In this document: positions 1,521 through 53,459 of the stretch, piece after piece
Numbering within the stretch: position 1 is the stretch's first letter
Layout: every line of letters begins with the position of its first letter
Origin: an uncultured Gammaproteobacteria bacterium
Lineage (GTDB): Bacteria; Patescibacteriota; Microgenomatia; Levybacterales; GWA1-39-11
Direction: 5' to 3'
DNA length: 55,838 bases
NCBI GenBank assembly: GCA_964511965.1
Contig: CAZEGF010000023.1
Coordinates: 108,887-164,724 of the forward strand
Program-made: the position numbers and the translations under genes
Notes under the pieces: generated by a model
The model's input: the letters and a program-made list of their open reading frames with translations, nothing else
Databases searched by the model: none
What the model was told of the DNA's origin: nothing

Positions 1521-1526
1521 TCTGAA

Positions 1527-1535
1527 ATTATAACA
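1527..1535 (-). promoter_or_regulatory. extended -10 box TGtTATAAT, 6 nt upstream of the ATG at 1520 (predicted leaderless start)
   Basis: The minus strand reads acaatTGtTATAATttcagaATG. The geometry matches 10 other sites in this window. Confidence 0.55.
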
Positions 1536-1536
1536 A

Positions 1537-2196
1537 TTGTATGCTTTAATACTATATGTGGATGAAATAATTGTAAAAAGACTAGATGATTTTTTTTCAA
1601 ATTATAAATTTCAGAAATATAAGAAAGGTGAGCTTTTAATTAGAGCAGACGAAAATCCAACCGGAATTTTTTACCTAAAAAAGGGAATCGTTAAAGAATA
1701 TTCGATTTCAAAAAAGGGGGACGAATTAGTTGTAAACATTTTTAAATCACAAGCTTTTTTCCCAATGTCGTGGGCTTTAAATAACACTCAGAATTCATAT
1801 TTTTTCGAAGCAACGGAAGATTTGGAATTATGGAAGGCACCTCGTGAAGACGTTATTGATTTTTTGCAAAAAAATCCCGATGTTACACTGGATCTTTTGA
1901 AAAGAGTATATAAAGGGACTGATGGGATGCTTATTAAAATAATGTATTTGATGTCCGGAAGTGCTTACGCCCGACTAATAACAGAACTTCTTACGCACTC
2001 TAAAAGATTTGGAGGAAATGGTCTGGTTTTGGATATTACAGAAGGAGATTTAGCTTCCAGAACCGGTATGACACGAGAAACGATCAGTCGGGAGATGAAA
2101 ATTCTTAAAGACAAAAATATAGTGAAAATTGAGAAAAATAAAGTAATGATTTTAAATTTAACAAATTTAGAGCTTGAGTTAGATGGAGGGATTTAG
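1537..2196 (+). CDS. Crp/Fnr-family transcriptional regulator (cNMP-binding-like beta-barrel plus C-terminal HTH)
   Basis: Effector-domain pattern 'GELLIRADENPTGIFYLKKGIVKEY...GDELVVNIF'. C-terminal HTH 'ITEGDLASRTGMTRETISREMKILKDKNIV'. Length ~215 aa. The true start may be the in-frame GTG at 1558 rather than the TTG at 1537. Confidence 0.8.
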   Translation: MYALILYVDEIIVKRLDDFFSNYKFQKYKKGELLIRADENPTGIFYLKKGIVKEYSISKKGDELVVNIFKSQAFFPMSWALNNTQNSYFFEATEDLELWKAPREDVIDFLQKNPDVTLDLLKRVYKGTDGMLIKIMYLMSGSAYARLITELLTHSKRFGGNGLVLDITEGDLASRTGMTRETISREMKILKDKNIVKIEKNKVMILNLTNLELELDGGI

Positions 2197-2546
2197 TGGG
2201 GAAGCGATTTGGTGATAATTTCTTTTGTAGGTATAATTCTAGCTCTTTTTTTACTCTCTGTTGGAAGTCCGGTAGGAAGTAAATATCCCTGCCATTTTCC
2301 TTCACCTGCGTGTAATTCAAGATGAAGAAGGTCGGTAAGCTTTGGTTCATCTTTTACTTTATAAAGTCGGTATGACCCTTTTGTAAGAACAGATTGAATA
2401 GGATGTTTTTCATTAGAGGTGACAAGTATATCCCCGATATTCTTTGCTTTTATCCAGGCAAATGAATCGTTTTCAAGATCAAGTATTTTAATCTGATTTT
2501 GAGTCTCACTCAAACTAAATTTTCCGGATTGTATATTTTGGATCAT
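2193..2546 (-). CDS. hypothetical protein (117 aa)
   Basis: ORF convergent with the Crp-like gene, with a 4-nt overlap. Plausible soluble-protein composition. A weaker TACTAT box lies 7 nt upstream of its ATG. No family recognised. Confidence 0.5.
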   Translation of the reverse strand: MIQNIQSGKFSLSETQNQIKILDLENDSFAWIKAKNIGDILVTSNEKHPIQSVLTKGSYRLYKVKDEPKLTDLLHLELHAGEGKWQGYLLPTGLPTESKKRARIIPTKEIITKSLPH

Positions 2547-2591
2547 AAAAGAAATAGTAAATGTACTATAGTATTTTTAAAATAGTTAATC

Positions 2592-2607
2592 AGTGATGTG
2601 TATCACA
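2592..2607. promoter_or_regulatory. CRP/FNR-type palindromic operator candidate (AGTGA-N6-TCACA, or GTGAT-N4-ATCAC)
   Basis: Perfect inverted repeat GTGATgtgtATCAC in the 100-bp divergent intergenic region between the 117-aa gene and ppsA. It matches the E. coli CRP core TGTGA-N6-TCACA at 9 of 10 positions. A Crp/Fnr-family regulator is encoded ~400 bp away. Confidence 0.45.
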
Positions 2608-2646
2608 TATATATATTGATAATGATTACAGAAAAAAGGTATTATA

Positions 2647-5118
2647 TTGAGTAAAGTATTAACTATGCCTGACCGTTCTGCCTATTATATTCTTTGGTTT
2701 GATGAAATAACTAAAGATGATATCCCTCTTGTAGGTGGTAAAAACGCCAACTTGGGAGAGATGTATCAAAATCTTTCACACACAACAAGTTCCCTATTTG
2801 CAGGTGAAAAAATTCAAGTACCATTCGGATTTGCGGTTACAGCGTATTCATATCGGTATTTTGTTGAACAAAATGCGCTAGACAAAAAAATCGGTGAAGC
2901 TTTGGCGAATTTAGACACAAGAAACATAAAAGCACTTGAGGAAGCCGGTAGAACCGTAAGGGACTTAATAATGGCAAGTGAGTTCCCTCAAGATCTTTCA
3001 GATGCAATAATTGGCGCATATCATGATTTGGCTAGGAGGATATCAAACGATGGTGATGTAGATGTTGCGGTAAGGTCGTCAGCCACTGCAGAAGATCTCC
3101 CTGACGCTTCTTTTGCAGGTCAGCAAGAATCATATCTAAATGTTCGGGGAGAGCATGAATTACTCGAGTCCATAAAAAAAGCATTTGCATCACTTTTTAC
3201 TAACCGTGCAATCTCATATAGGGTTGATAAAAATTTTGACCACTTCAAAGTTGCTCTTTCAGTTTCTGTTCAGAAGATGGCCAGATCAGACAGGGGAGCT
3301 AGTGGCGTTATGTTTACCCTGGACACAGATAGTGGATTTAGGGATGTGGTTCTCATAAATGCATCATGGGGGTTGGGTGAATATGTTGTGAAAGGTATAG
3401 TAACTCCGGATGAATATATAGTTTTTAAGCCAACGCTTAAAAATGGATTTAAATCAATTATAAGTAAAAAAATAGGATCAAAAGAGAAGAAGTTAATTTA
3501 TGCAACCGAAGGAAATACTCCAACCAAAGAAGTTCAAGTAACCCCTAACGAGCGTGCGATGTTTGTTTTGGACAACGATCTTATTACTAGACTTTCAAAA
3601 TGGGGAATTATGATTGAAGATCATTACCAAAAGCCTATGGATATAGAATGGGCTTACGACGGGGAGACAAAAGATCTATATATTGTCCAAGCACGTCCGG
3701 AAACAGTACAAGCTAAAAAAAGCGCAACGGTTCTTGAAGAGTATGTTTTGGAAGAAAAAGGACAAGTACTTGCTAGTGGTGCTTCAGTCGGTAGAAAAAT
3801 TGGACAAGGCAAAGCCCATTTCATAAAAGATCCAAGCCAGTTGTCTGAATTTCAACCCGGGGAAGTATTAGTTGCTGAAATAACCGATCCCGACTGGGAA
3901 CCAATCATGAAAATTGCCAGTGCAATAGTTACCAATTCCGGAGGAAGGACAAGTCATGCTGCAATTGTTTCAAGAGAATTAGGAATACCTGCAATTGTTG
4001 GATGCGGAAATGCGACAACTGCAATACCAAATGGGCAAGACATTACTGTTTCATGTACTGATGGAGAGGTAGGAAATGTATATCAGGGAATATTGAAATT
4101 CAGAATAGATTCAACCGACATTGCGAATTTTGAATTGCCAAAGACTGACATAAAAATGATTGTTGCAAGTCCGGAGCTTGTATTTAATTACTCACAAATT
4201 CCAAATAAAGGAGTGGGTCTTGCACGTGAGGAATTTATTATTTCAAATTTTATTAAAATTCACCCAAATGCACTTCTTGACTATGACAATCTCACAGACA
4301 TGAATGTTAAAAATCAAATAGATGCCTTAACCGTTGGTTATGACAATAAGGTTCAATATTATATAGACAAGCTTGCCTATGGAATTGCTCTAATCGCAGC
4401 TCCATTTTATCCAAATGAAGTGCTTTTACGATTTAGTGATTTCAAATCCAATGAATATGCAAATTTGATTGGTGGAAAGCTGTATGAACCGGAAGAAGAA
4501 AATCCAATGATAGGATGGAGAGGTGCAAGCCGTTATACTGACCCAAATTTTTCAAAAGCATTTGCTTTAGAGTGCGAAGCTGTTAAAAAAGTAAGAAATG
4601 AAATGGGATTATATAATCTGCAAGTTATGATACCATTCTGCCGCACACCTGAAGAAGGTAAAGCGGTACTTGAGGAAATGAATAAGCATGGACTTGTTCA
4701 TGACAAAGCTAAAAACCAGCTTAATAAAGAAAGTCTCGATGAAAATCTTCACGTATGGGTTATGGCTGAGGTTCCATCAAATGTAATTCTGGTAGATGAA
4801 TTTGCCGATATCTTTGATGGATTTTCCATCGGATCAAATGATCTAACGCAACTTACTTTGGGGCTTGATCGAGATTCAAAGTTGATAGCCCATATAGGAA
4901 ATGAAAATAATGCAGCGGTTCACAGTATGATTTCAACACTTATTAAAAAGGCTCACGCAAAAAATTTGAAAGTTGGGATATGTGGACAAGGGCCTTCTGA
5001 TTTTCCGGAACTTGCCGAATTTTTGGTAAGAGAGGGAATTGACTCTATATCGCTAAATCCTGACACTGTTCTAAAGACAGCTGTAAAAGTAAAAGAAGTT
5101 GAAGCATCCCTTCTGTGA
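2647..5118 (+). CDS. ppsA: phosphoenolpyruvate synthase (pyruvate, water dikinase)
   Basis: N-terminal ATP-grasp motif 'VGGKNANLGEM'. Phospho-histidine swivel motif 'GGRTSHAAIVSRELGIPAIVG'. C-terminal PEP-utilising TIM-barrel motifs 'GWRGASRY' and 'GFSIGSNDLTQLTLG'. Length 823 aa. The TTG at 2647 is preceded by AAAAGG at suitable spacing; an alternative ATG lies at 2665. Confidence 0.93.
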   Translation: MSKVLTMPDRSAYYILWFDEITKDDIPLVGGKNANLGEMYQNLSHTTSSLFAGEKIQVPFGFAVTAYSYRYFVEQNALDKKIGEALANLDTRNIKALEEAGRTVRDLIMASEFPQDLSDAIIGAYHDLARRISNDGDVDVAVRSSATAEDLPDASFAGQQESYLNVRGEHELLESIKKAFASLFTNRAISYRVDKNFDHFKVALSVSVQKMARSDRGASGVMFTLDTDSGFRDVVLINASWGLGEYVVKGIVTPDEYIVFKPTLKNGFKSIISKKIGSKEKKLIYATEGNTPTKEVQVTPNERAMFVLDNDLITRLSKWGIMIEDHYQKPMDIEWAYDGETKDLYIVQARPETVQAKKSATVLEEYVLEEKGQVLASGASVGRKIGQGKAHFIKDPSQLSEFQPGEVLVAEITDPDWEPIMKIASAIVTNSGGRTSHAAIVSRELGIPAIVGCGNATTAIPNGQDITVSCTDGEVGNVYQGILKFRIDSTDIANFELPKTDIKMIVASPELVFNYSQIPNKGVGLAREEFIISNFIKIHPNALLDYDNLTDMNVKNQIDALTVGYDNKVQYYIDKLAYGIALIAAPFYPNEVLLRFSDFKSNEYANLIGGKLYEPEEENPMIGWRGASRYTDPNFSKAFALECEAVKKVRNEMGLYNLQVMIPFCRTPEEGKAVLEEMNKHGLVHDKAKNQLNKESLDENLHVWVMAEVPSNVILVDEFADIFDGFSIGSNDLTQLTLGLDRDSKLIAHIGNENNAAVHSMISTLIKKAHAKNLKVGICGQGPSDFPELAEFLVREGIDSISLNPDTVLKTAVKVKEVEASLL

Positions 5119-5147: not shown

Positions 5148-5168
5148 CATTACAATATCCTTGTAATG
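5148..5168 (+). promoter_or_regulatory. 8-bp inverted repeat (cattacaa-N5-ttgtaatg) that includes the ATG of the downstream gene
   Basis: Read directly: 5148-5155 pairs with 5161-5168, and the right arm contains the ATG at 5166. A 9-bp direct repeat 'attacaata' occurs at 5128-5136 and 5149-5157. The stem is AT-rich (2 G:C pairs) with no T-run, so it is not a convincing intrinsic terminator. Confidence 0.3.
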
Positions 5169-5609
5169 AAACAATATCTAGTAATCCTCGCCGATCGTAA
5201 ACGAGCGCATTTAATTCTCGTTAAGAATGGAAAAGTTGTTTTATATGAAAAGCTACCCACAGATCTTGCTCCCCGAAAAGTTAAGCACGGACAAAATGAT
5301 TGGGATGCACAGGATAAAATTTTGAGAAAAAGGAATGGACTACTTGATATTCACTTGGATAAAATCTCAAAAAGCGCAATAGAATTTACAAAGAATATAA
5401 GAATAGACGGAGTTGTGTTTGGTGGACACCAGGATTTACATCATAAAATATCAGAAACCCTAACGTATCCGCTAAAAAATAAATTCATGGGTTTTTTTAT
5501 AACTGAACTTAAAATTCCACAAAATCAATTAACCGAAAAAGCTTTGCAAAGAATTTTAGAACTTGAGAATGAAAAGGAGGAGAAAAAAATTCAGGAAGCT
5601 TTATCATAA
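5166..5609 (+). CDS. hypothetical protein, possibly Host_attach / bacterial aeRF1-like (baeRF) family
   Basis: The N-terminus 'YLVILADRKRAHLILV' resembles the 'W.LVADG.RARIF' opening of host-attachment-protein-type sequences. Size ~147 aa, with an exposed 'KHGQ' tripeptide. The assignment is from memory of the family pattern only. Confidence 0.4.
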   Translation: MKQYLVILADRKRAHLILVKNGKVVLYEKLPTDLAPRKVKHGQNDWDAQDKILRKRNGLLDIHLDKISKSAIEFTKNIRIDGVVFGGHQDLHHKISETLTYPLKNKFMGFFITELKIPQNQLTEKALQRILELENEKEEKKIQEALS

Positions 5610-6295: not shown

Positions 6296-6304
6296 TGCTA
6301 TACT
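6296..6304 (+). promoter_or_regulatory. extended -10 box TGcTATACT, 6 nt upstream of the ATG at 6311 (predicted leaderless start)
   Basis: Reads cttGcTATACTagatgcATG, with T6296 G6297 forming the TGn extension. Same geometry as the other sites. Confidence 0.5.
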
Positions 6305-6310
6305 AGATGC

Positions 6311-7504
6311 ATGGATGAGACAGGAGAACTTCCACAAGCAAAGCCAGCTGTAGAGAGAAAAATTGTAAAAAGAACAAATCTAAATCCGAATGGGTTCAAA
6401 TCTGTCGTAGATCCAAATGAACCGATAATTGGTGGACCTGCTAAGACAGAGTATATTCCGCAAGGACCCAATTCCCCAAAAAAACCTGAAGAAACTGCAA
6501 GTTTTGGGACAAAAGCCGTTCTTACTGTTGCGGGTTTGGCTACAATGGCTGGAGTTGCAAAAGGAATTGATGAAATGCAAAGTGCAGATGCTGCTGAGCC
6601 TCCAGCGCCAGTAGTTTCGGTTCGGCAGGATGAACAAAATCAACCTGTTCAAGAAGTCATGCCAGCGGCGATGGCAAAAGAGTTGGTTGCATCAGAAGTC
6701 AAATCTGATGAGCCTGACCTATTTGATGAAATTTTCCACGATCTTTCTCCTTTTCAAAAAGCAGAAGCTCAAGCTGAAGTTGCAAAGTTCAAAGAAAGAA
6801 TTTTGGCAAAAGAGGATTATGAAAAAGAGCACATAGAAATTCCCATGCAATACAAAGATGTCATTGAAAATACAGCAAATGCTTATGGTATTTCGGTCGA
6901 CACTCTCATGGGGCTTATTGGTACGGAAAATGGTGGAGGACCCGACAAAATAAATTCAATTTCAAAAGCAAGAGGTGTTGCGCAATTTATGCCAGATACT
7001 GCAGTGCAATATAAATTAATAGATAAATATGGAGATCACAGAGGAGACCCGGTTTTGAGTATCGATGCAGCTGGGAGATATTTAAGAGACACTAAAGCAC
7101 TTTTTGCAGGAGATGAGGGGATGGCGCTTTGGTCATATCATGCTGGACCCGGTAATGTGTATCATGCACTTCGCATATATTTTTATGATGTAAATCATGA
7201 GAATTTACATGACTATGGAGCTGCAATTCAAAATAATAACGCAGATGACAGAATAAAGATTGAGGAAAGAACAAAAGAATTAATTCTTCAAGATAAATTG
7301 GATATTTCAAAACTACTCGCAAACGAAAAAGTTAAGGAGTTTACTGCAACATTGAAAGATTATTCCGAAACATATCCTGCAACAGTTGTTGCGATGAGTC
7401 AGGTAATCAGGGAGTATCAAAAGCAACACCCAGTTCACGATCTTGGAAATGGTTTAAGGGTTTTTGTTGGCGACAACCCAACCGCCAAGCCGACAGGAAG
7501 ATAA
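6311..7504 (+). CDS. lytic transglycosylase (SLT domain) with a disordered N-terminal region and one membrane anchor
   Basis: SLT motifs 'GLIGTENGG' (catalytic Glu context), 'ARGVAQFMPDTA' and 'YHAGPGNV'. Hydrophobic segment 'AVLTVAGLATMAGVA'. The N-terminal third is low-complexity and rich in P, E and A. Confidence 0.8.
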   Translation: MDETGELPQAKPAVERKIVKRTNLNPNGFKSVVDPNEPIIGGPAKTEYIPQGPNSPKKPEETASFGTKAVLTVAGLATMAGVAKGIDEMQSADAAEPPAPVVSVRQDEQNQPVQEVMPAAMAKELVASEVKSDEPDLFDEIFHDLSPFQKAEAQAEVAKFKERILAKEDYEKEHIEIPMQYKDVIENTANAYGISVDTLMGLIGTENGGGPDKINSISKARGVAQFMPDTAVQYKLIDKYGDHRGDPVLSIDAAGRYLRDTKALFAGDEGMALWSYHAGPGNVYHALRIYFYDVNHENLHDYGAAIQNNNADDRIKIEERTKELILQDKLDISKLLANEKVKEFTATLKDYSETYPATVVAMSQVIREYQKQHPVHDLGNGLRVFVGDNPTAKPTGR

Positions 7505-7587: not shown

Positions 7588-8787
7588 TTAATTTACAACT
7601 TTATTCAATTCCAATTTTTTATGAAATACAAGCAATATGAAAAAAGCCAGAAGTGCCATCGCGCTTCCATAAATAAATGTTGCATGTGGATTTATAAAGT
7701 GCCACATGAGCCCTCCCAAAAGGGAAGCAAGAAAAGTTCCTACTGCAGTTAGAGTATAATAAGCTCCGAAATATGATCCCGATTCCTTTTTCTGAATAAA
7801 TTCTGATAAATAGGCTTTTGAGACGCCGTCTGTTGCAGCAATATAAGTTCCATAAATAGGAAATAAAAACCACAACCAAAATGATGAGTTAATAAGTCCG
7901 AAAAGTAGATAAACACCTGAAAATACAATTAGCCCTATCGCAAATACCTTTCTTGCCCCAATTTTATCTGCAAGCATACCAGCGGGTGCTGAAAATACGG
8001 TTTGTGAAATATTATAAAGTACGTATACAGTTACTACCCCAATGGTCGCAAGTCCTAAATTTTTTGCTTGAAGTAACAAGAATACATCAGAGCTGTTGCC
8101 AACGGCGAAAATAAAACTTATAAGCAAAAATAATTTAAGACGCTGGTCCATATTCTTGAAACTTATTTTTACAAATTTAGCTTTTTCTTTTTTTACTTTT
8201 AACGCTTTTTCTTTTACAAGAAATACAAGCAAAAAAATCGCAATTACTGCCGGAATAAAAGCTACAAAAAATGTCTCACGGATATTGTCTTTTAATAAAT
8301 AGAGAACAACCAATGCCAATAAGGGTCCAAAGACAGCACCTAGACTATCAAAAGCCCTATGAAATCCGAAAATATAGCCCTTATTTTCAGGAGTAGAATT
8401 TTCCAAAAGAATGCTATCTCTTGCAGCGGTTCGAAGACCTTTGCCGAGTCTATCTACAATACGTGCAAAAAGTACCATTTGCCACCCAAGTGCCAGACCA
8501 ATCAATAATTTTGATGCCGCACCAAAAGAATATCCTACAGTCACAAATACTTTTCTTTTCTGTATATAGTCTGAGTAAGCTCCGAAAAAGTATTTTGTAA
8601 TGCTTGCTAGCGCTTCAACCAATCCTTCAATAATTCCTACTATCGGAATTGAAGTATGCAAAACTGTTGTCAGAAAAATTGGCACAATAGGATAAATCAT
8701 TTCCGAAGCAAGGTCATTAAAAAAGCTAACAACACTTAGTACAACTACGGTGAAAGGAGGAAATTTAGGTCTTTTAAATAAGCTCAT
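7588..8787 (-). CDS. MFS transporter
   Basis: 399 aa with ~12 hydrophobic helices. MFS loop 2-3-like motif 'DRLGKGLRTAARD' and a second-half 'LADKIGARK' motif. Confidence 0.85.
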   Translation of the reverse strand: MSLFKRPKFPPFTVVVLSVVSFFNDLASEMIYPIVPIFLTTVLHTSIPIVGIIEGLVEALASITKYFFGAYSDYIQKRKVFVTVGYSFGAASKLLIGLALGWQMVLFARIVDRLGKGLRTAARDSILLENSTPENKGYIFGFHRAFDSLGAVFGPLLALVVLYLLKDNIRETFFVAFIPAVIAIFLLVFLVKEKALKVKKEKAKFVKISFKNMDQRLKLFLLISFIFAVGNSSDVFLLLQAKNLGLATIGVVTVYVLYNISQTVFSAPAGMLADKIGARKVFAIGLIVFSGVYLLFGLINSSFWLWFLFPIYGTYIAATDGVSKAYLSEFIQKKESGSYFGAYYTLTAVGTFLASLLGGLMWHFINPHATFIYGSAMALLAFFILLVFHKKLELNKVVN

Positions 8788-8793
8788 TTTCTC

Positions 8794-8802
8794 ATTATAT
8801 CA
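8794..8802 (-). promoter_or_regulatory. extended -10 box TGaTATAAT, 6 nt upstream of the ATG at 8787 (predicted leaderless start)
   Basis: The minus strand reads acgaTGaTATAATgagaaaATG. Confidence 0.55.
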
Positions 8803-8964: not shown

Positions 8965-8972
8965 TGTATAAT
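8965..8972 (+). promoter_or_regulatory. -10 box TATAAT (preceded by TG), 6 nt upstream of the ATG at 8979 (predicted leaderless start)
   Basis: Reads atatTGTATAATtgtattATGact. This favours the ATG at 8979 over the TTG at 8964, which would lie inside the promoter. Confidence 0.5.
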
Positions 8973-8978
8973 TGTATT

Positions 8979-9362
8979 ATGACTGGTTTTGTTGGGAACA
9001 TAGAGGAACTAACACTTGCGAATAATTATTTCCGGCATGTAATTTATACCGGACAGCATTCACAGTTGGTGGTAATGAGTCTTAATCCTAACGAAGAAAT
9101 CGGGTTTGAGGTTCATGAGATAGTTGATCAATTTTTAAGGATTGAAAAAGGGGAAGGTAGGGTGATTATGAATGGAGAAGAAACCATTTTAAAAGATGGA
9201 AGTGCTATATTCGTCCCCGCAGGAGTAAAACATAATGTAGTTAACACATCTTCAGAAAATACACTAAAGCTTTATACTGTGTATTCTCCCCCACATCACA
9301 AAGATGGGACAATTCATAAAACTAGAAAAGATGCAGAGTCAGATACAGAAGACCACATCTAA
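8979..9362 (+). CDS. cupin-domain protein
   Basis: Cupin motifs 'G.EVHE...DQFLRIEKGEG' and 'GSAIFVPAGVKHNVVN'. About 127 aa from the ATG at 8979. Confidence 0.8.
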   Translation: MTGFVGNIEELTLANNYFRHVIYTGQHSQLVVMSLNPNEEIGFEVHEIVDQFLRIEKGEGRVIMNGEETILKDGSAIFVPAGVKHNVVNTSSENTLKLYTVYSPPHHKDGTIHKTRKDAESDTEDHI

Positions 9363-9501: not shown

Positions 9502-9524
9502 AAAGTAGTGTAATTACTGGAATG

Positions 9525-9596
9525 TGACCCCACCGGAATTCGAATCCGGGTCTCTTGGATGAGAACCAAGTGTCCTAACCACTAGACTATGGGGCC
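9525..9596 (-). tRNA. tRNA-Glu (anticodon CUC), 72 nt, CCA not encoded
   Basis: Manual cloverleaf on the minus strand: GGCCCCA-TA-GTCT-AGTGGTTA-GGAC-A-CTTGG-TTCTCAT-CCAAG-AGAC-CCGGA-TTCGAAT-TCCGG-TGGGGTC-A. All four stems pair, the T-loop is TTCGAAT, and the anticodon loop is TT-CTC-AT. Confidence 0.9.
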
Positions 9597-9617
9597 GTGA
9601 GGTATATTTTACCTCAC
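9597..9617 (-). other. 8-bp hairpin (gtgaggta-N5-tacctcac) directly abutting the tRNA 5' end; its loop region carries a TAAAAT -10-like box
   Basis: Read directly. The minus strand reads gtgaggTAAAATatacctcac followed by G1 of the tRNA. Confidence 0.3.
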
Positions 9618-9687
9618 AGTAGGCTAATAACTCAAGCTTTGAACTAACTTTACAAAAAACTAACTTTGTAGTATCATATGACCCATA

Positions 9688-10227
9688 GTGTTAGTAGAGG
9701 GACGAACAACTCATACTGCAACTCCAATATCCCCACGAGGGGCTGATTTACTGTCTCCTGAAGAATTCACATCTTTCTATCCATATGTAGTCAGATACGC
9801 AAATAATACCCAACATCACGGAGATTCGTTAATATTCACTCCGCACTCCGGAGAGCACGACTCATTTGGTGTATTTTTTTATGCGCTTGCTGACCTATCT
9901 CAGGCTAAAAATGAGGAATATAAGAATAGATATTTATTTAAATCTGAAGATGTTGTTGCTTCTTCATCTATACCAGTAGAGGTTCGTGAAAAGGGGGTTT
10001 TGACACTTCCAGGAAAAAAATTCAAAGAGGAGGAAGAAAGAATTAGACAGATGTTGTACCCAGGTAGGGATGTCACAACTCTCAAAATAGGTGAGCATTA
10101 TACGGTTGGGGAGACAGTTTATAAAGAAAATCTCATTTTAAGAATTGCCCCAGAATCATTTGAAAGATTGCCAATTCTTACAGTTCCTACAGTTCTAACT
10201 TTAAATACCGCGTGCAGATTAGGATAG
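9688..10227 (+). CDS. hypothetical protein (179 aa), weakly supported start
   Basis: Long ORF with a non-repetitive composition. The only N-terminal start is the GTG at 9688, with no -10/N6 geometry or SD. No family recognised. Confidence 0.4.
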   Translation: MLVEGRTTHTATPISPRGADLLSPEEFTSFYPYVVRYANNTQHHGDSLIFTPHSGEHDSFGVFFYALADLSQAKNEEYKNRYLFKSEDVVASSSIPVEVREKGVLTLPGKKFKEEEERIRQMLYPGRDVTTLKIGEHYTVGETVYKENLILRIAPESFERLPILTVPTVLTLNTACRLG

Positions 10228-10260: not shown

Positions 10261-10266
10261 TATAAT
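10261..10266 (+). promoter_or_regulatory. -10 box TATAAT, 6 nt upstream of the ATG at 10273 (predicted leaderless start at the head of the glycosylation cluster)
   Basis: Reads gaatgtaTATAATgttgatATGtct. The ATG at 10273 gives the typical GT2 N-terminus 'MSQFLLSVVIPSYNE'. Confidence 0.55.
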
Positions 10267-10272
10267 GTTGAT

Positions 10273-11028
10273 ATGTCTCAATTCCTACTTTCAGTGGTTA
10301 TTCCCTCATACAACGAAATGGGAAATCTACAAAAAGGAATACTCAACAAGATCCAAAAGTATCTCGATCGTCAACCATATAATTATGAAGTGATTATCGT
10401 TGATGATGGATCAACAGATGACAGCAGGGATTTTATAAAAAGATTTACAAAAGAAGAAAAAGAATTTCACCTCATTGAAAACACCCACACAGGTAAAGCT
10501 GGAGCTGTAACAGCGGGAGTACTTGCTGCCCACGGAGACTACATTTTATTTACCGATATGGATCAAGCTACTCCGATTGAGGAGTTAGAGAAAATAATGC
10601 CATATATTGATAAAGGATTTGACGTAGTTATTGGATCGCGTAGTGGAAATAGAAAAGGGGCACCATTTACGAGAAAAATTATGGCAAAAAGTATGATGAT
10701 TTTAAGATCTGCAATCGTGGGGTTGCCTGAAATTACAGATACTCAATGTGGTTTTAAGCTTTTTACCAAAGAAGCAGCCAAAAAAGTTTTTGAAAAAGTG
10801 AAAGAGTCACACCATGGATTTAAAAAAATCCATGGGTCATCAGTTACTGCAGGATTTGATATTGAACTTTTGTTTATTGCAAAGAATATGGGATTTAAAA
10901 TAAAGGAAGTTCCTGTCAGTTGGTTGTATGTTGAAACAAGAAGAGTAAGTCCTATAAAAGATTCTGTTGATGGTTTTTTTGAGTTATTCAAAATAAGAGG
11001 TAATATCAAATCTGGTAAATACGACTAA
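10273..11028 (+). CDS. GT2 glycosyltransferase, polyprenyl-phosphate sugar synthase type (DPM1/GtrB/Alg5-like)
   Basis: Motifs 'SVVIPSYNE', 'EVIIVDDGSTDDS', 'FTDMDQATP' (DxD region), 'TQCGFKLF'. About 250 aa with no long membrane tail. The ORF track starts at the GTG at 10228, but the ATG at 10273 is preferred. Confidence 0.85.
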   Translation: MSQFLLSVVIPSYNEMGNLQKGILNKIQKYLDRQPYNYEVIIVDDGSTDDSRDFIKRFTKEEKEFHLIENTHTGKAGAVTAGVLAAHGDYILFTDMDQATPIEELEKIMPYIDKGFDVVIGSRSGNRKGAPFTRKIMAKSMMILRSAIVGLPEITDTQCGFKLFTKEAAKKVFEKVKESHHGFKKIHGSSVTAGFDIELLFIAKNMGFKIKEVPVSWLYVETRRVSPIKDSVDGFFELFKIRGNIKSGKYD

Positions 11029-12194: not shown

Positions 12195-12203
12195 TGTTAC
12201 AAT
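12195..12203 (+). promoter_or_regulatory. extended -10 box TGtTACAAT, 6 nt upstream of the ATG at 12210 (predicted internal leaderless start)
   Basis: Reads ttcTGtTACAATaaccctATGgtg, inside a 22-bp intergenic gap. Confidence 0.5.
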
Positions 12204-12209
12204 AACCCT

Positions 12210-13757
12210 ATGGTGTCTATTAAGAAATTATTTCCCGAAATTCTTTTTGCTCCTGTATTACTAATTTTATTTTTAGCAACACGTCTTACAAATATTCTGT
12301 CACTCCCAATTTTTACAGATGAGGCTATCTATACCCGATGGTCCCAAATTGCCAGATATGATTCAAATTGGCGATTTATTTCACTAACAGATGGCAAGCA
12401 GCCAGCTTTTGTGTGGTTGGACATGATAGTTATGCGGTTTTTTTCTGACCCATTGCTTGGTGGAAGGGTAGTATCTGTTATTTGTGGGTTTTTTGTCGTT
12501 TTGGGATTGTATTTTTTAACTTTCGAGATATTTAAAAATGAAAAATATAAAAGAATAATGGGCATTGTCGCCTCTGCTTTGGCCGTTATTTATCCATTTC
12601 TGATTGTGTATGACAAGCTGGCACTGTACGAAAGCATGATTGCTGCTTTTATGATATGGGCTTTGTACTTTCAGATACTACTTATCAGAAGAATACGTTT
12701 TGACCTAGCGCTTGTTACCGGATTTGTCATGGGAGGAGCTGTTCTTACAAAATCTTCAGGTTTTCTAGCACTTTATTTGATTCCTTTCATATTTCTTCTT
12801 TTCAATTTTAGTAATAAAAATAATAAGCAGAGACTAATAAGGGCTGTCGGATATTTTTTAGTTGTTTTTATAGTAGTGAACGTTTTCTATTCTGTTTTGC
12901 GGCTCTCACCTTTTTACCACATCATAAATCAAAAAAATTCAATTTTCGTCTATGATGTAGGCTCTTGGATTAAGCTTCCTATTAACGCAAAAATAGATAA
13001 TTTAGTAAGCAATAGTCGCGGACTTACCGATTGGTTTTTCAATTATTTCACGATTGTCTGGGCTCTTCTTGTAGGAGTATCATTTTTTATAAAAAGATCT
13101 TTCACAAAGGAAAAGTTAGTATTGTTTTTATGGTTTTTCCTTCCATTCCTTGCGCTTTGCTTTCTAGGAAAAACCCTTTATCCAAGATATCTACTGTTTA
13201 TGACAATTCCATTGATCCCGTTAGTTGCATATAGCGCAACACTTTTGTTTTTTAAATTTAAAAATATACTTATTAGGATTATTTTAATTATTCTTGTGCT
13301 TATTATTCCTCTCTGGACTGACTATTTTGTTATATTTGATTTTGCCCGTGCACCTATTCCAAAAATTGATTTGGAGCAACTTATCAATGGATGGCCTGCC
13401 GGAGGAGGTATACGGGAAAGTGTTGAGTTCTTTAGAGAGCAATCAAAAAATGGAGAAATTATGGTAGGTACTCAAGGAACTTTTGGTCTGATGCCTGCAG
13501 CTTATGAAATCTATTTTCGTGACAATCCGAATGTACGGATTAATGGCTTCTGGCCGGTAGAGAGCGATAAGGTACCTGATTTACTGATGGATTATGCGCA
13601 TAGAATACCAACGTATTTCGTATTCTACCAACCATGTCCTACCTGTGAAGTTGCAGGAATTGCTCCAAAGACATTAAATTTAAAAGAAATTGCATCATAC
13701 AATAAAGGAATTGGGACGACAAAACTTACCATTTACCAAGTGTTACCCACTAAGTGA
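12210..13757 (+). CDS. ArnT/PMT_2-like GT-C membrane glycosyltransferase
   Basis: First-loop acidic motif 'LPIFTDEAIYTRW'. About 12 helices. C-terminal soluble domain of ~140 aa. Confidence 0.7.
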   Translation: MVSIKKLFPEILFAPVLLILFLATRLTNILSLPIFTDEAIYTRWSQIARYDSNWRFISLTDGKQPAFVWLDMIVMRFFSDPLLGGRVVSVICGFFVVLGLYFLTFEIFKNEKYKRIMGIVASALAVIYPFLIVYDKLALYESMIAAFMIWALYFQILLIRRIRFDLALVTGFVMGGAVLTKSSGFLALYLIPFIFLLFNFSNKNNKQRLIRAVGYFLVVFIVVNVFYSVLRLSPFYHIINQKNSIFVYDVGSWIKLPINAKIDNLVSNSRGLTDWFFNYFTIVWALLVGVSFFIKRSFTKEKLVLFLWFFLPFLALCFLGKTLYPRYLLFMTIPLIPLVAYSATLLFFKFKNILIRIILIILVLIIPLWTDYFVIFDFARAPIPKIDLEQLINGWPAGGGIRESVEFFREQSKNGEIMVGTQGTFGLMPAAYEIYFRDNPNVRINGFWPVESDKVPDLLMDYAHRIPTYFVFYQPCPTCEVAGIAPKTLNLKEIASYNKGIGTTKLTIYQVLPTK

Positions 13758-24646: not shown

Positions 24647-24652
24647 ACGAAT

Positions 24653-31396: not shown

Positions 31397-31402
31397 AGTT
31401 TA

Positions 31403-31434: not shown

Positions 31435-31443
31435 TGGTAGAAT
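31435..31443 (+). promoter_or_regulatory. extended -10 box TGgTAGAAT, 6 nt upstream of the ATG at 31450 (predicted leaderless start)
   Basis: Reads aatgtTGgTAGAATaaaggtATGaat. Confidence 0.5.
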
Positions 31444-31449
31444 AAAGGT

Positions 31450-41325: not shown

Positions 41326-41358
41326 GTGGTTACAAATACTTTAAACTTATAAAATAAA

Positions 41359-42879
41359 ATGACCAATAAAAGTAATCCCTATAATTTTATAAGCAAATAT
41401 TTCAAAAAAAATAGAATTAATTATATTCTGTGTTTGATTCTTCTTTTTTCCACTTTCCTTAGATTTTATAGTTATGACACAAGATGGGGTCTTGCATATG
41501 AGCAGGCGTGGTTTGCAGTCATTGCACGGCATGCACTTTCTACTTTTCAGCTGCCATTATTGGGTCCTTTTGCCTCTGGTGGACCCTTCCAAACAGGTGG
41601 TGAATGGTTTTGGATCGTAATGGCTGGAACATTACTCAATCCATTCAGTGTAATCTCCCCATGGGTTTTTATATCAATGCTTTCTGTTTTTCAGGTATAT
41701 CTTTTATATGTACTTGGAAAACATTATGGAGGAAAAAGCTTATCTTACGTCGTAGCTATATTAGGGGCAGTATCTATCTCTCAGGTACTTCAAGCAACAA
41801 ACCTTACCAATCAGATGCCATCATCTCTGTGTGCATCTCTATTACTTATTGCAGTTGTCTTATATCTGAAGAAAGAGAGGAATATTTTTCTTTTCCTGTC
41901 CGGATTTGCAGTAGGATTATCATCCTCTATTCATCTTCAAGGGGTACTACTCGTTATACCACTCTTATGCTTTGTACTTATGACAAAATCAATAAGCCCT
42001 AAAAAATTACTCTTCGTTGGAATGGGAATATTTGTACCATGGTTACCCGTACTTTTTATCGATGCTCAAAATAATTTTTATAATACAAAAAATATGTTAG
42101 CGTACTTTACTGGATCTCAGAACCGTATATCTTATGATGAACTTGGTAGAAGATGGTTAACATTTATTATTGAATATGTTCCAACATCTTGGAGCAGGAT
42201 CGTTGGGGGAAATATATTTCTTGGTTATGCTCAAATTTTGCTTGTCGGATTTACTTTTATTTATTCCTTATACAAAAAAACTTTAAATAAGAAATGGATA
42301 ATTATCTTTGTATCAACCATTATTATGACATTTGCTCTTAGATACATAAGAACCCCTCTGTATGAGAACTATACTACTTTTATTCACCCATTCGTAATTC
42401 TTTTGATAGGTTGGTCTATTTGGAATTTATATAAATTGCGTAAATATGTCGCGATAACTTCTCTTGCAATTATAGTATCAAGTAGTGTTTTTTTTCTTTG
42501 GAAAGATATAGCAAACAGTACAAATTTCACAAATTTGACTACTAAACAGTATGTCTCATTTCTTAAGAGAAAATTCCCTAATCAAAAGTTTGCTATCTAT
42601 GATTACAACTTCAATAATAAGCAAAACACATTGCCTCTTGTTCTTTATTTACAGACCGAAGGATTACTTGATGATAGCGGTCATAGGATAGGTATGGTCA
42701 TCGTTGCTAATTCAACGATTAAAATCACTCCGCATAAAGCTATTTTCGGAGGTGATGGGGGATATCAATTGGTTGATCTTACAGCCTCAGGAAGTTCTGC
42801 CCTCCAGAAGGCTAAATGGGCTTTTGTTAATCCTTCAATTATTTACAATTCTGTCGAATATTGGTACAAGGATAAGTGA
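41359..42879 (+). CDS. polytopic membrane protein, GT-C-like, unclassified; paralog of 46210
   Basis: Shares 'RF.SY......W..EQ/DN-AW.A........LPL[LV]G' and 'G[FL]S..[IV]H' blocks with 46210. C-terminal soluble domain. A TATAAA box lies 5 nt upstream of the ATG. Confidence 0.45.
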   Translation: MTNKSNPYNFISKYFKKNRINYILCLILLFSTFLRFYSYDTRWGLAYEQAWFAVIARHALSTFQLPLLGPFASGGPFQTGGEWFWIVMAGTLLNPFSVISPWVFISMLSVFQVYLLYVLGKHYGGKSLSYVVAILGAVSISQVLQATNLTNQMPSSLCASLLLIAVVLYLKKERNIFLFLSGFAVGLSSSIHLQGVLLVIPLLCFVLMTKSISPKKLLFVGMGIFVPWLPVLFIDAQNNFYNTKNMLAYFTGSQNRISYDELGRRWLTFIIEYVPTSWSRIVGGNIFLGYAQILLVGFTFIYSLYKKTLNKKWIIIFVSTIIMTFALRYIRTPLYENYTTFIHPFVILLIGWSIWNLYKLRKYVAITSLAIIVSSSVFFLWKDIANSTNFTNLTTKQYVSFLKRKFPNQKFAIYDYNFNNKQNTLPLVLYLQTEGLLDDSGHRIGMVIVANSTIKITPHKAIFGGDGGYQLVDLTASGSSALQKAKWAFVNPSIIYNSVEYWYKDK

Positions 42880-48559: not shown

Positions 48560-50205
48560 TTACAAAACACTTAAATAAATTTTTAATTGCTGTTATTCTT
48601 ATTGCAGCGGTCCTGCGTCTTTGGAATCTTAACGCTGTTCCCCCGTCTGCCTCTCTTGATGAGTCATCAATTGGATACAATGCATATTCTGTAATTAAAA
48701 CCGGTGGTGATGAGTTTGGTACATTTCCATTAATTTCCCAAAGGGGTTATGATGACTACCGCCGATCTACCTATCTTCTACTTGTTGCTCCTTTTGTTTC
48801 GGTCTTAGGACTTAATGTCATAGCCGTTAGGCTCCCAGCTGTAATATTGAGTATTTTAACTGTTTGGGCAGTATTTGGAATAGTAAGACGATTAGTTAAA
48901 AAACCTTCTGAATTTGGTGATCGTTTAGCTTTAATATCTGCGTTGATTCTAGCAACAAGTCCTTGGCATATTTATATATCCCGAATTGGTCACGAATCTA
49001 ACGCGTGTCTTTCTTTTTTTGTTTTTGCAGTTTTGTTTTTTCTTAAAGGGTTAGAAAATAAAAAACTTCTATTAGTCTCTGTGTTATTTTTTGCACTTGC
49101 GTTGGTGAGTTATTACTCCGGACAGGTTCTGGTTCCGCTCTTTGTTCTAGCTTTAGTTGTAATTTATAGAAAACAACTATTAAAAATCGTATTTTCTGAT
49201 AACAAATCAAAACTTATAACAATAAGCGTATTTATATTAGCAATTCCTATCGTGTGGTCTGTTTTTTCACCGGAGGCTCTCATAAGATTTAGAGGCACAA
49301 GTACTTTTTCCCCAAGTGCACACGAACAACTATTTAAGGAGCGTGTTTTATTACGGAATAAAGCAGTTGCCAATCACGACGTTTTAGGGTCAATTATTTA
49401 CAATCAACGACTTTTCCCTCTCGTTGTTCTTTTCCAGGGGTACATCGATCACTTTAATCCGCAATGGTTATTCTTTAATAATTCTAATGGAATATTTAAG
49501 GCTCCTCATGAAGGTTTATTATATCCGTGGCAGATTATATTTATTCTCATTGGCATTTTTGCGCTCGTAAAAACAAATAAATTAACTAATAAATCCAAAT
49601 TATTTCTTATTATTTGGTTTCTTGTAGGTGCTTTACCGGCTTCAATAGCGACGCAAACACCTCACGCGATGCGTTCTTATAACATCTTGCCTGCGTGGGA
49701 GATATTTACTGCTTTGGGTTTGACAGTAATTATTTATAAGTTTTATAAATTTAGACTTGTTCTGGGGGTTGTAATTGGTATCTTTTTCATCTTTTCATTA
49801 CAATCATTTTTAACGAACTATTTTGTTACATTCCCGAAAGAACAATCAAAATCTTTTCAATATGCATACGGGAAGGCTTTGGGGTACGTAATTACAAATC
49901 AGGATAAATACCAAAAAATTATTGTTTCAAATAAAGACAATATGTTCCAGTCGTACATGATATTTCTTTATTACAGCAAATACGATCCTTCACTTTATCA
50001 AAAACAAGGTGGGACAAAATCCGGAGGGTATGATGCTACTCATTTCTTTGGAAAATATGAATTTAGAACGGTTGATTGGAATAACGAAAAAAATACAAAT
50101 ACACTTTATGTTTTAAATCCTCAAGAAGTGCCTGTGGGAGCTCAAAAATTGTACGAAGGTAAATACCTTGATGGTACAACCGGCGCAATAGTTATATCTC
50201 GTTGA
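48556..50205 (+). CDS. GT39/PMT_2-like GT-C membrane glycosyltransferase, family member
   Basis: 'ASLDESSIGYNAYSVIKTGGDEFG', 'LATSPWHIYISR', 'YQKIIVSNKDN.FQSYMIFLYY'. ATGA overlap. Confidence 0.8.
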   Translation: MITKHLNKFLIAVILIAAVLRLWNLNAVPPSASLDESSIGYNAYSVIKTGGDEFGTFPLISQRGYDDYRRSTYLLLVAPFVSVLGLNVIAVRLPAVILSILTVWAVFGIVRRLVKKPSEFGDRLALISALILATSPWHIYISRIGHESNACLSFFVFAVLFFLKGLENKKLLLVSVLFFALALVSYYSGQVLVPLFVLALVVIYRKQLLKIVFSDNKSKLITISVFILAIPIVWSVFSPEALIRFRGTSTFSPSAHEQLFKERVLLRNKAVANHDVLGSIIYNQRLFPLVVLFQGYIDHFNPQWLFFNNSNGIFKAPHEGLLYPWQIIFILIGIFALVKTNKLTNKSKLFLIIWFLVGALPASIATQTPHAMRSYNILPAWEIFTALGLTVIIYKFYKFRLVLGVVIGIFFIFSLQSFLTNYFVTFPKEQSKSFQYAYGKALGYVITNQDKYQKIIVSNKDNMFQSYMIFLYYSKYDPSLYQKQGGTKSGGYDATHFFGKYEFRTVDWNNEKNTNTLYVLNPQEVPVGAQKLYEGKYLDGTTGAIVISR

Positions 50206-50211
50206 TATAAT
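50203..50211 (+). promoter_or_regulatory. consensus extended -10 box TGaTATAAT, 6 nt upstream of the ATG at 50218; its TGA is the stop codon of the upstream gene
   Basis: Reads ctcgtTGaTATAATagatatATGaaa. The whole 12-bp gap plus the stop codon is taken up by this element. Confidence 0.55.
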
Positions 50212-50217
50212 AGATAT

Positions 50218-50994
50218 ATGAAAAAACTTTCTGTAGTTCTTGCCACATACAACGAGGAAGAGAATCTGGACCGGTGCCTTGCTTCTGTAAAAGATTTAGC
50301 TGACGAGATAGTAATTGTTGATGGAACTTCAAAAGATAAAACTGTCGAAATCGCTAAATCCTACAGTGCAAAAGTTATTATTACAACAAATCCTCCAAAT
50401 TTCCACATAAATAAGCAGAAGGCAATTGACAAAGCATCGTGCGATTGGATTCTTCAGCTTGATGCGGATGAGGTTGTATCTGACGGACTTGCATTAGAGA
50501 TAAAGCATATTCTCAAAAGTGACCCTGAAGAAAACGGATATTGGATGCCAAGAAAAAATTATTTTTTAGGACGATTTCTTATGAAAGGTGGTCAATATCC
50601 TGATTATACGGTCAGATTGTACCGTAATGGGAAGGGGAAATTACCTCAAAAGGACGTTCATGAACAAGCTGTCATTGAGGGAAAAATTGGTTATCTTAAA
50701 GAAGCATTGCTTCATTATCCCTACAAAAATTTCAGTTTTTATGTAACAAAATGGATGCGATACAATCATCTTCTAGCATCACAAATCAATGATGATCTAA
50801 AAAAGAAGAATTTTTTGTTACGTATTTATTATGGATTCGCTTATTTACTGGCAAAACCTGCTCATTGGATGTTAACAGCCTATGGAAGACATAAGGGATT
50901 TTATGATTCTTGGCAGGGGTTGGTTTTTGCTATAATGTCAGCACTACGATTCCCGGTTTCCTATATTTTATACTTACAAAATAAATATGAATGA
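50218..50994 (+). CDS. GT2 glycosyltransferase (WaaE/LgtF-like subtype), paralog 3 of 3
   Basis: 'LSVVLATYNEEENLDRCLASVKDLADEIVIVDGTSKDKT', 'QLDADE', 'YPDYTVRLYR'. Confidence 0.8.
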   Translation: MKKLSVVLATYNEEENLDRCLASVKDLADEIVIVDGTSKDKTVEIAKSYSAKVIITTNPPNFHINKQKAIDKASCDWILQLDADEVVSDGLALEIKHILKSDPEENGYWMPRKNYFLGRFLMKGGQYPDYTVRLYRNGKGKLPQKDVHEQAVIEGKIGYLKEALLHYPYKNFSFYVTKWMRYNHLLASQINDDLKKKNFLLRIYYGFAYLLAKPAHWMLTAYGRHKGFYDSWQGLVFAIMSALRFPVSYILYLQNKYE

Positions 50995-51983: not shown

Positions 51984-51993
51984 TAAAAACAAA

Positions 51994-52356
51994 ATGCCCA
52001 ATAGATTTGAAAGCCTTCCAATTTTTCAAATTGCGCACGAATTTGTTTTGGAAGTTTATAAAACATCAAAGTTATTCCCTGTGGATGAGCGTTTTGGATT
52101 AACAAGTCAGATTAGAAGATCTGTATCTTCAATTCCAACAAATATTGTAGAAGGTAATGCGCGCGGGCATAAGAAAGAAATTGTTGAGTTTTTGTATATT
52201 GCTAAAGGATCACTTGAAGAAACTAAATATCATCTTCTATTATCAAGGGATCTAGAGTACATAAGCCCTGAAAATTATGAAGCATTGACACAATATGCTG
52301 ATTTAGTTGGAAAACAATTAAATGGATTAATAAATTACTGGAAGAACAAATCATAA
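51994..52356 (+). CDS. four-helix-bundle protein (23S rRNA intervening-sequence protein family)
   Basis: 'IFQIAHEFVLEVYK.SK.FP..ERFGLTSQIRRS.SSIPTNIVEGNAR..KKE...FLYIAKGSLEE..YHL.LS.DL.YI' is the canonical pattern of this family. 120 aa. Confidence 0.85.
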   Translation: MPNRFESLPIFQIAHEFVLEVYKTSKLFPVDERFGLTSQIRRSVSSIPTNIVEGNARGHKKEIVEFLYIAKGSLEETKYHLLLSRDLEYISPENYEALTQYADLVGKQLNGLINYWKNKS

Positions 52357-52367
52357 TTTGAATTTAC

Positions 52368-52379
52368 AGTTTTAAGTTT
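52368..52379. repeat. right arm (agttttaagttt) of the 12-bp inverted repeat flanking the four-helix-bundle gene
   Basis: Perfect reverse complement of 51972-51983. Confidence 0.6.
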
Positions 52380-52385
52380 ATTGTT

Positions 52386-52391
52386 TATAGT
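52386..52391 (+). promoter_or_regulatory. -10 box TATAGT, 6 nt upstream of the ATG at 52398 (predicted leaderless start)
   Basis: Reads ttgttTATAGTttatatATGcgt. Confidence 0.45.
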
Positions 52392-52397
52392 TTATAT

Positions 52398-53459
52398 ATG
52401 CGTATAGTTGTTGATATTGGTCCGATAGATTCAAATAGTACGAGTGGTCACAAGGTTCGGGGGGTAGGCAAATATATAAAAATACTTCGTGATAATCTTC
52501 AAAAATTTGACGAAACAAACACATATATTTTTTCTTCAAACCCGTCAAAGGAAAGGGGAATAGATTTGATTCATTACCCTTATTTTGACCCATTTTTCAT
52601 TACACTCCCATTAATAAAAAGAACCAAGAGTTTGGTAACAGTACACGATGTTATCCCGCTTTCTCATGCCAAACAATTCCCGGTTGGTATTAAAGGAAAC
52701 ATTAAATGGAAACTTAACAAAGCTCTCCTCAAACAGGTTAATGGAATAATTACCGATTCATTTGCTTCAAAAGATCAAATACACAAAATAACCGGGATTT
52801 CCGAAAAAAAAATATATCCTGTACATCTTGCCGTTGATCATGAGTTTAAGAGATTGGAAAAAGGAGCATGGGAAAATAAGATAAGAAAAAAATATAGCCT
52901 GCCGGAAGTATTTGTTTTATACGTTGGTGATGTTACTTGGAACAAAAATTTACCAAATATTGTGGTGTCAGCAAAAAAAACAAATATCCCACTGGTTATA
53001 GTTGGTAAAGCGTTAAGCGAATTGAATTTTGATGTAAAGAACCCATGGAATAGTGACCGTAAAATTGTTTTGGACCAAACTCTCAATAATCCACTTTTTA
53101 TAAAACTAGGATTTGTCCCAACAGATGAGTTAGTTGAAATCTACAACTTAGCACAAGCATTACTTATGCCGTCATTTGATGAAGGATTTGGATTGCCTGT
53201 TTTAGAAGCTATGAAATCAGGATGTCCTGTTATTACATCTGATCGTGGAAGTTTGGCAGAAGTGGCTGGAGACGCAGCAATATATGTTGATCCGGATGAT
53301 CCTGAGTCGATTAGTAAAGCTATTGGACTAATTTTAGTTTCTAAAAGTTTAAAAAATGAATTAGTTGATAAGGGATTTGAACAAGCTAAACACTTCTCCA
53401 TAGAAAAAATGATGAAAGACACAATTACAGTTTATAATACATTCTCCCATGAAAAATAA
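52398..53459 (+). CDS. GT4 (group 1) glycosyltransferase
   Basis: 'MRIVVDIGP', 'VGD...NKN', 'PSFDEGFGLPVLEAMKSGCPVITSDRGSLAEVAGDAA'. Confidence 0.85.
   Translation: MRIVVDIGPIDSNSTSGHKVRGVGKYIKILRDNLQKFDETNTYIFSSNPSKERGIDLIHYPYFDPFFITLPLIKRTKSLVTVHDVIPLSHAKQFPVGIKGNIKWKLNKALLKQVNGIITDSFASKDQIHKITGISEKKIYPVHLAVDHEFKRLEKGAWENKIRKKYSLPEVFVLYVGDVTWNKNLPNIVVSAKKTNIPLVIVGKALSELNFDVKNPWNSDRKIVLDQTLNNPLFIKLGFVPTDELVEIYNLAQALLMPSFDEGFGLPVLEAMKSGCPVITSDRGSLAEVAGDAAIYVDPDDPESISKAIGLILVSKSLKNELVDKGFEQAKHFSIEKMMKDTITVYNTFSHEK

Follow-up and report, generated by a model that had tools for sequence, protein, structure and literature searches.

A -10-type box six nucleotides before operon-leading start codons points to leaderless expression in a Patescibacteria bacterium

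The 55.8 kb stretch of DNA analyzed here (33% GC; referred to below as the window) carries ~46 genes, nearly all on the + strand, and one tRNA-Glu, and comes from an organism that we take, from its sequence, to be a bacterium of the Patescibacteria (Candidate Phyla Radiation, CPR), leaving its class within CPR unassigned. Eleven of its start codons are preceded by a -10-type hexamer at a distance of exactly 6 nt from the A of the ATG, and three more carry weaker variants; all 11 main sites and all three weaker ones are present in the sequence exactly as an initial annotation of this DNA had written them, and the coordinates of the boxes were rechecked (Table 1). We interpret the boxes as extended -10 promoters that would place the transcription start on the A of the ATG and so give leaderless mRNAs, a reading to which we assign a probability of about 0.8. 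Leaderless transcription was also the interpretation offered by the initial annotation, and the sequence tests for leaderless genes that were run support it.

Box position relative to start codons

Gene starts were chosen blind to the motif, from long open reading frames (ORFs) and with preference for an ATG near the start of the ORF. When TANNNT was counted by its distance from these start codons, a peak was found exactly 6 nt upstream (TANNNT-N6; 12 of 45 genes), with each other spacing from 0 to 25 occupied in 1-5 of the 45 genes (mean 2.4). The Poisson P value of the peak is 1e-5, or 3e-4 when corrected for the 26 spacings. A fully automatic, motif-blind caller that takes the first ATG of each long ORF gave a similar picture, with TANNNT-N6 at 11 of 42 starts. 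At window ATGs that are not start codons, the same arrangement occurs 35 times in 1783 (~2%).

One explanation of these counts is that the matches arose by chance in AT-rich intergenic DNA and were picked post hoc. The spacing was indeed selected after the data had been viewed, and a generic promoter and terminator scan, which is uninformative in AT-rich DNA, returned no excess (46 promoter-like sites as compared to 47.6 in shuffled sequence). The strict pattern TGNTANNNT-N6-ATG occurs 7 times in the window, only about twice the 3.4 that shuffling predicts, and 7 occurrences are reached in 6 of 100 shuffled sequences; TATAAT hexamers number ~93 across the window, mostly within genes. Because the bare pattern is common in AT-rich DNA, its significance derives from its location on gene starts: all 7 strict matches are start codons of gene-length ORFs, and none is found elsewhere. 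The spike also survives when gene calls are left out altogether. Triplets counted after every box in the window and in its close and middle-distance relatives show a peak of ATG at N6, which GTG and TTG do not share. It likewise persists (34 as compared to ~9.5) when hexamers that begin with the stop codons TAA or TAG are dropped and only TA[CT]NNT is retained, a result that guards against an in-frame-stop artifact of the "first ATG after a stop" rule.

The box is concentrated on genes that begin an operon. Genes were classed as operon-leading if 12 nt or more separated them from the gene upstream, or if their neighbor was divergent, which gave 22 such genes in the window. TANNNT-N6 precedes 10 of these as compared to 2 of the 23 operon-internal genes (Fisher P = 0.007), and the two internal matches, 34754 (TAATTT) and 36414 (TAGGTT), are poor hexamers that look like chance level. 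Near misses among the operon-leading genes are 31396 (TACAAA-N6), 2546 (TACTAT-N7), and 41359 (TATAAA-N5). The suggestion that leaderless transcription is widespread applies to 10 of the 22 operon-leading genes under the strict definition and to 13 with the near misses; the 23 operon-internal genes cannot be leaderless. The 20 nt upstream of the internal genes are A-rich (AAAA is enriched 4.3-fold) and G-poor, and this enrichment is of poly-A only, not of TATAAT.

Replication in relatives and Shine-Dalgarno usage

For replication, the same motif-blind caller was applied to loci fetched through two unrelated genes, those for phosphoenolpyruvate (PEP) synthase (PpsA) and an MFS transporter. TANNNT-N6 was found at 30 of 178 genes in close PpsA relatives (mean at other spacings 7.2, P = 2e-10), at 29 of 233 genes in other Patescibacteria-labelled loci (mean 9.4, P = 2e-7), and at 53 of 440 genes in the MFS-ortholog loci (80 loci, unique starts; mean 17, P = 2e-12). 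Archaea-labelled loci had no peak (7 of 429 genes, as compared to a mean of ~13), and the N6 spike was also absent from distant loci that use Shine-Dalgarno (SD) sites. The held-out flanks of this genome contain the full-length form of the window's truncated first gene, which starts TGATATACT-aacaat-ATG, again at N6. Other operon-leading genes in these flanks carry TAGAAT-N7, TGATATAAT-N7, TGCTATACC-N6, and CACAAT-N6, and the ATG of Lon is preceded, at 12 nt, by TTGACA-17-TACACT, a promoter of the classic type. Replication in three independent related-locus sets and in the held-out flanks, together with the lack of a spike in the archaeal and distant SD-using loci, refutes chance as the source of the pattern, and we consider that explanation scarcely credible.

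The restriction to operon-leading positions recurs in the MFS set, in which the N6 box precedes 44 of the 294 genes separated from their upstream neighbor by 12 nt or more, as compared to 2 of the 81 that follow more closely. At the MFS gene itself, at least 17 orthologs, with 62-98% protein identity, retain the box in the form TGnTAyAAT-N6-ATG, most of them with the TGn (examples are TGA TATAAT tacttc ATG, TGG TACAAT tttata ATG, TGC TATACT caaagc ATG, and TGC TACAAT aaaaat ATG), and the boxed orthologs differ from one another in upstream sequence, in the 6 nt of the spacer, and in their first codons. The ortholog of gene 2546 in one relative (L008; 54% identical) has TACAAT-N6-ATG as compared to the window's TACTAT-N7, and PpsA has an N6 box in several relatives and none at the window's own copy. 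For the other boxed genes (6311, 8979, 10273, and 12210), gene order is lost beyond near-identical strains, so a deep series of orthologs was available from the MFS gene only; the cupin box at 8979 is retained in two strains (L087 and L136).

The initial annotation had also remarked on the scarcity of SD motifs, and the counts agree. With SD usage measured as GGAG, GAGG, or AGGA at -20 to -4 and a region inside genes as the control, 2 of 42 window genes (5%) have a motif, equal to the control. The measure does detect used sites, as non-CPR bacterial loci gave 47% as compared to 7% in the control. The MFS-ortholog loci (L087-L166) were then binned by the identity of their MFS protein to the window's copy. 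At 74% identity or more, the N6 box was present at 18 of 83 starts (22%) and SD motifs at 2 of 83 (2%; control 7 of 83, 8%); at 61-73% identity, the box was present at 31 of 194 (16%) and SD at 25 of 194 (13%; control 16 of 194, 8%); and at 52% or less, the box was present at 4 of 163 (2.5%) and SD at 34 of 163 (21%; control 7 of 163, 4%). As the MFS ortholog diverges from that of the window, box use falls and SD use rises, an inverse trend that looks like a lineage-specific switch as far as these loci can indicate. We raise tentatively the idea that this CPR lineage may have given up SD pairing altogether, with only leaderless leading genes and stop/start re-initiation for the rest.

Promoter features and the predicted mode of initiation

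Alignment of the 11 window sites reveals T at -15 in 9 and G at -14 in 8. A full TGn extension is present in 7, and at 8979 the TG lies directly adjacent to the hexamer. The TGn is the extended -10 element, which is read by the sigma factor. The best -35 match reaches no more than 3 of 6 bases in 8 of the 11 sites, 9 of 11 have a pyrimidine at -1, and in every case the seventh base past the hexamer is the A of the start codon. In the MFS set, TG occupies -15/-14 in 25 of 53 boxed starts as compared to 11 of 387 others (P = 7e-18), and a pyrimidine occupies -1 in 45 of 53 boxed starts as compared to 224 of 387 others; in the close PpsA set, TG was not enriched (4 of 30 boxed starts as compared to 20 of 148 others). 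A pyrimidine-purine-pyrimidine triplet centered 7 bp after the -10 element sets the start in 93% of tested Escherichia coli promoter variants (PMC12641261), and the 9 window sites with a -1 pyrimidine present this start element 7 bp after the -10, the pyrimidine being followed by the A and T of the ATG as +1 and +2.

Both the TGn and the -1 pyrimidine are promoter features without a known role in translation or ribosome binding. They argue against reading the AT-rich box as a translation signal, that is, a non-SD ribosome-binding or enhancer motif as in Bacteroidota. AU-rich sequence near a start codon can favor initiation, and where SD motifs are absent another initiation signal is needed, both of which count for such a reading. 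Translation motifs of this kind, however, precede all genes (PMC6028130), whereas the internal genes here have the box no more often than background (window, 2 of 23; relatives, 2 of 81) and are enriched upstream for poly-A rather than TATAAT. We regard a translation signal as very unlikely.

In the mechanism that we favor, the boxes would be housekeeping sigma-70-type extended -10 promoters with the consensus TGnTAyAAT and little or no -35 element. RNA polymerase would begin transcription on the A of the ATG, seven bases beyond the hexamer, with the start site fixed by the pyrimidine-purine-pyrimidine element. The mRNA would then have neither a 5' untranslated region nor an SD site, and initiation would therefore occur at the 5'-terminal AUG, which the ribosome with initiator tRNA would bind directly. 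This mode would serve 10-13 of the 22 operon-leading genes of the window. The 23 downstream genes, which also lack SD sites, would most likely depend on re-initiation at overlapping stop/start codons, with the A-rich, unstructured upstream sequence helping.

Several observations weigh against leaderless expression. Roughly half of the operon-leading genes have no N6 box, and folding of the predicted mRNAs gave no sign of weaker structure in the first 40 nt than in internal stretches of these genes (mean folding energies of -3.3 and -3.6 kcal/mol, respectively, P = 0.59). The 16S rRNA 3' end was sought in all fetched loci for its anti-SD tail, and none was present. The start at the A is a prediction that combines the -10 spacing with the start-element rule. 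Finally, genes 12210, 24653, and 50218 start 12-22 nt after a gene on the same strand with no terminator hairpin between, so that they are probably also carried as internal genes on read-through polycistronic transcripts, and their boxes would probably be internal promoters.

These short gaps also count for a rival reading, in which the promoters are real but the genes are mainly expressed from leadered transcripts, through read-through or starts a few bases upstream, with leaderless mRNAs a minor product. Spacings of 7-9 are somewhat raised in relatives (29, 30, and 25 as compared to a mean of 17), held-out genes have boxes at N7, N9, and N12, and some MFS orthologs have a box at N13, as such a reading would have it. 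The maximum is nevertheless sharp and exactly at N6, the spacing is conserved in orthologs, and the start element that the -1 pyrimidine forms with the first two bases of the ATG, 7 bp downstream of the -10, favors the A as the start. Moreover, read-through could not reach the divergent pairs 8787/8979 and 31396/31450, as no operon lies upstream of them. Predominantly leadered expression thus seems improbable to us, though a good deal less so than a translation signal, and leaderless transcription from the A of the ATG remains our preferred interpretation.

Table 1 Boxes and start codons in the window
Sequence or feature	Position	Strand	Gene and remarks
TGT-TATAAT-ttcaga-ATG	1518-1535	-	88-amino-acid orphan ORF 1254-1520; box 1527-1532, TGn 1533-1535
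TGC-TATACT-agatgc-ATG	6296-6313	+	SLT-domain transglycosylase gene 6311-7504
TGA-TATAAT-gagaaa-ATG	8785-8802	-	MFS transporter gene 7588-8787
(T)TG-TATAAT-tgtatt-ATG	8967-8981	+	Cupin gene 8979-9362, divergent from 8787
TATAAT-gttgat-ATG	10261-10275	+	GT2 glycosyltransferase gene 10273-11028
TGT-TACAAT-aaccct-ATG	12195-12212	+	First PMT_2 gene 12210-13757; 22 nt after upstream gene; opens 7 tightly packed genes to 23148, with 23180-24634 next after a 31-nt gap
TGC-TAAACT-acgaat-ATG	24638-24655	+	GT2 gene 24653-25552; opens packed run to 31147
TGC-TACAAA-taaact-ATG	31394-31411	-	DUF5652 gene 31148-31396; hexamer ends in A, not T
TGG-TAGAAT-aaaggt-ATG	31435-31452	+	GT4 gene 31450-32517; opens packed run to 39366; divergent from 31396 with a 53-nt gap; best -35 match GTGACA, 18-nt spacer
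TGA-TATAAT-agatat-ATG	50203-50220	+	GT2 gene 50218-50994; 12 nt after upstream gene
TATAGT-ttatat-ATG	52386-52400	+	GT4 gene 52398-53459; -35 TTTACA, 17-nt spacer
Weaker: TACTAT-N7-ATG	2544-2559	-	117-amino-acid gene 2193-2546
Weaker: TATAAA-N5-ATG	41348-41361	+	PMT_2-like gene 41359-42879; without comparative support
Weaker: TACAAT-N9-ATG	5151-5168	+	baeRF_family10 gene 5166-5609; predicted 2-3 nt leader
23 operon-internal start codons	11030-53451	+	19 overlap the end of the upstream gene, 9 of them as ATGA

Gene content, comparison with known systems, and implications

The organism is present in several public metagenome assemblies. Its nearest PpsA relatives (69-75% identical) are in genomes mostly labelled Patescibacteria, Levyibacteriota, Daviesbacteria, or Doudnabacteria, and the few close relatives that bear labels of other phyla may be mislabelled bins. 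A first block of genes encodes a Crp-like regulator, PpsA, the SLT transglycosylase, the MFS transporter, and the cupin. The second is a glycosylation island of more than 40 kb (10273-55588), a very large share of a small genome, with ~17 large multi-pass membrane glycosyltransferase-like proteins (PMT_2, PTPS_related, YfhO, and MptA_B) between which lie GT2 and GT4 enzymes, two Polysacc_synt flippases, and two epimerases. A DUF5652 protein is also encoded (31148-31396). Between the window and strains of ~98.5% identity, the differences include insertions of whole genes (L169 4251-5039, L169 13415-14071, and L171 8160-8816): one such strain has a 262-amino-acid acyltransferase-like gene between the MFS and SLT genes, and in two the left flank carries a HAD hydrolase gene.

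The box was also used to choose between start codons. The choice of 8979 over 8964 is matched by public gene calls (127 amino acids), as is that of 10273 over 10228 (251 amino acids), where the GT2 domain begins at residue 7, like in other GT2 genes here. The further claim that its box shows the 88-amino-acid ORF to be real was not borne out. The box is retained (TGC TATAAT) in a 98%-identical strain in which the ORF is open, four near-identical contigs have an 88-amino-acid gene call at this position, and without the ORF there would be an unusually long gap of 290 nt. It matches no Pfam family, and among 5.8 billion proteins its only relative is a 93%-identical strain variant without a sign of protein-level selection; the 7 nt differences between the two produce 0 synonymous and 6 non-synonymous codon changes, in comparison with a contig of very low coverage. 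The ORF is thus neither confirmed nor dismissed. The short gap that holds its minus-strand box is also that of the Crp-like regulator (1537-1560, +), which has no ATG start and could begin at TTG (1537) or GTG (1558); the L008 ortholog of this gene has TGGTATAAT-N8-ATG at the aligned codon (L008 1160-1190).

Other features of the window stand apart from the box. The PEP synthase gene (2665-5118, +) shares 56-61% identity with copies from numerous archaeal genomes, DPANN among them (L019-L085), which suggests a gene shared between CPR bacteria and archaea. Adjoining it, 5166-5609 (+) encodes a 147-amino-acid protein matching baeRF_family10, a bacterial relative of archaeo-eukaryotic release factors. 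A 120-amino-acid protein matching 23S_rRNA_IVP/bAvd, a four-helix bundle, is encoded by a single gene in the glycosylation island (51994-52356, +) that has no leaderless box. The 179-amino-acid ORF at 9688-10227 (+), which public callers predict as a gene, has a GTG start, its first ATG at about residue 131, no Pfam family, and a TATCAT box 10 nt upstream. The tRNA-Glu(CTC) gene (9524-9635, -) has a promoter-like pair, TTGAGT-18-TAAAAT, of which the -10 ends 9 nt before the mature 5' end, which predicts a precursor with just 2-3 nt of leader. Where 30386-31147 (+) and 31148-31396 (-) converge, a perfect, AT-rich hairpin, AGGAAAAAATA-loop-TATTTTTTCCT (31135-31165), is the only clear terminator-like structure among the gene ends examined and could act as a bidirectional terminator.

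Among known systems, the leaderless genes of Actinobacteria and Deinococcus-Thermus, for example those of Mycobacterium tuberculosis and Deinococcus deserti, come closest. The accepted signature of bacterial leaderless genes, a Pribnow box situated 6-8 nt ahead of operon-leading start codons, defines group C of GeneMarkS-2, which is frequent in these two phyla (PMC6028130). The window resembles group C in having a TANNNT box near the start codon that is confined to operon-leading genes, and in using AUG as the start codon, with 45-59% of operon-leading genes boxed here as compared to the 25-50% of operons predicted to be leaderless in group C (PMC6028130). It differs in its AT-rich genome, in its strong TGn extension, and in that only ATG peaks at the leaderless spacing. 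Group C is furthermore described as using SD for its other genes (PMC6028130), whereas the remaining genes here lack SD, an absence that does not argue against leaderless first genes. Extended -10 sigma-70 promoters likewise have TG one base upstream of the hexamer, and the mostly weak -35 matches of the window sites would be in keeping with such promoters, but here the promoter is locked to the start codon and would be recognized, as predicted, by the sigma factor of this organism.

Haloarchaea such as Haloferax volcanii have mostly leaderless mRNAs, and their internal genes are independent of SD; archaeal promoters have a TATA box ~26 nt upstream. An arrangement in which leaderless genes lead and packed internal genes lacking functional SD follow would be common to them (and to group D in PMC6028130) and the window, but the box here is a bacterial -10 at 6 nt, and the archaeal loci examined lack the N6 spike. 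The Bacteroidota-type group B of GeneMarkS-2 shares the lack of SD usage and A-rich sequence upstream of starts. Its motif, however, precedes all genes (PMC6028130), while the box described here is confined to operon-leading genes and has promoter features. Within CPR, about half of Parcubacteria lack the anti-SD motif in 16S rRNA (Tsurumaki et al. 2022, PMC9297842). They too are a lineage in which SD pairing seems unused, but that work concerns the rRNA tail in a subgroup and is silent on leaderless transcripts. No report of leaderless expression in CPR/Patescibacteria was found in a search of open-access papers only, which is weak evidence of novelty; this seems to be a known mechanism in a group where it is apparently undescribed.

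For annotation, the rule fixes start codons in CPR genomes (such as 8979 and 10273) and marks operon boundaries, and gene finders that assume SD sites would misplace starts in such lineages. For genetic tools directed at hard-to-grow CPR organisms, TGnTATAAT-N6-ATG offers a minimal expression cassette that is ready for use. CPR bacteria have pared-down ribosomes, and if the 16S 3' tail had also changed, the change in translation start would be tied to this reduction. An SD-free lineage that relies on leaderless initiation and re-initiation would be well suited to probing how simple bacterial initiation can become and whether its leaderless form accompanies ribosome reduction.

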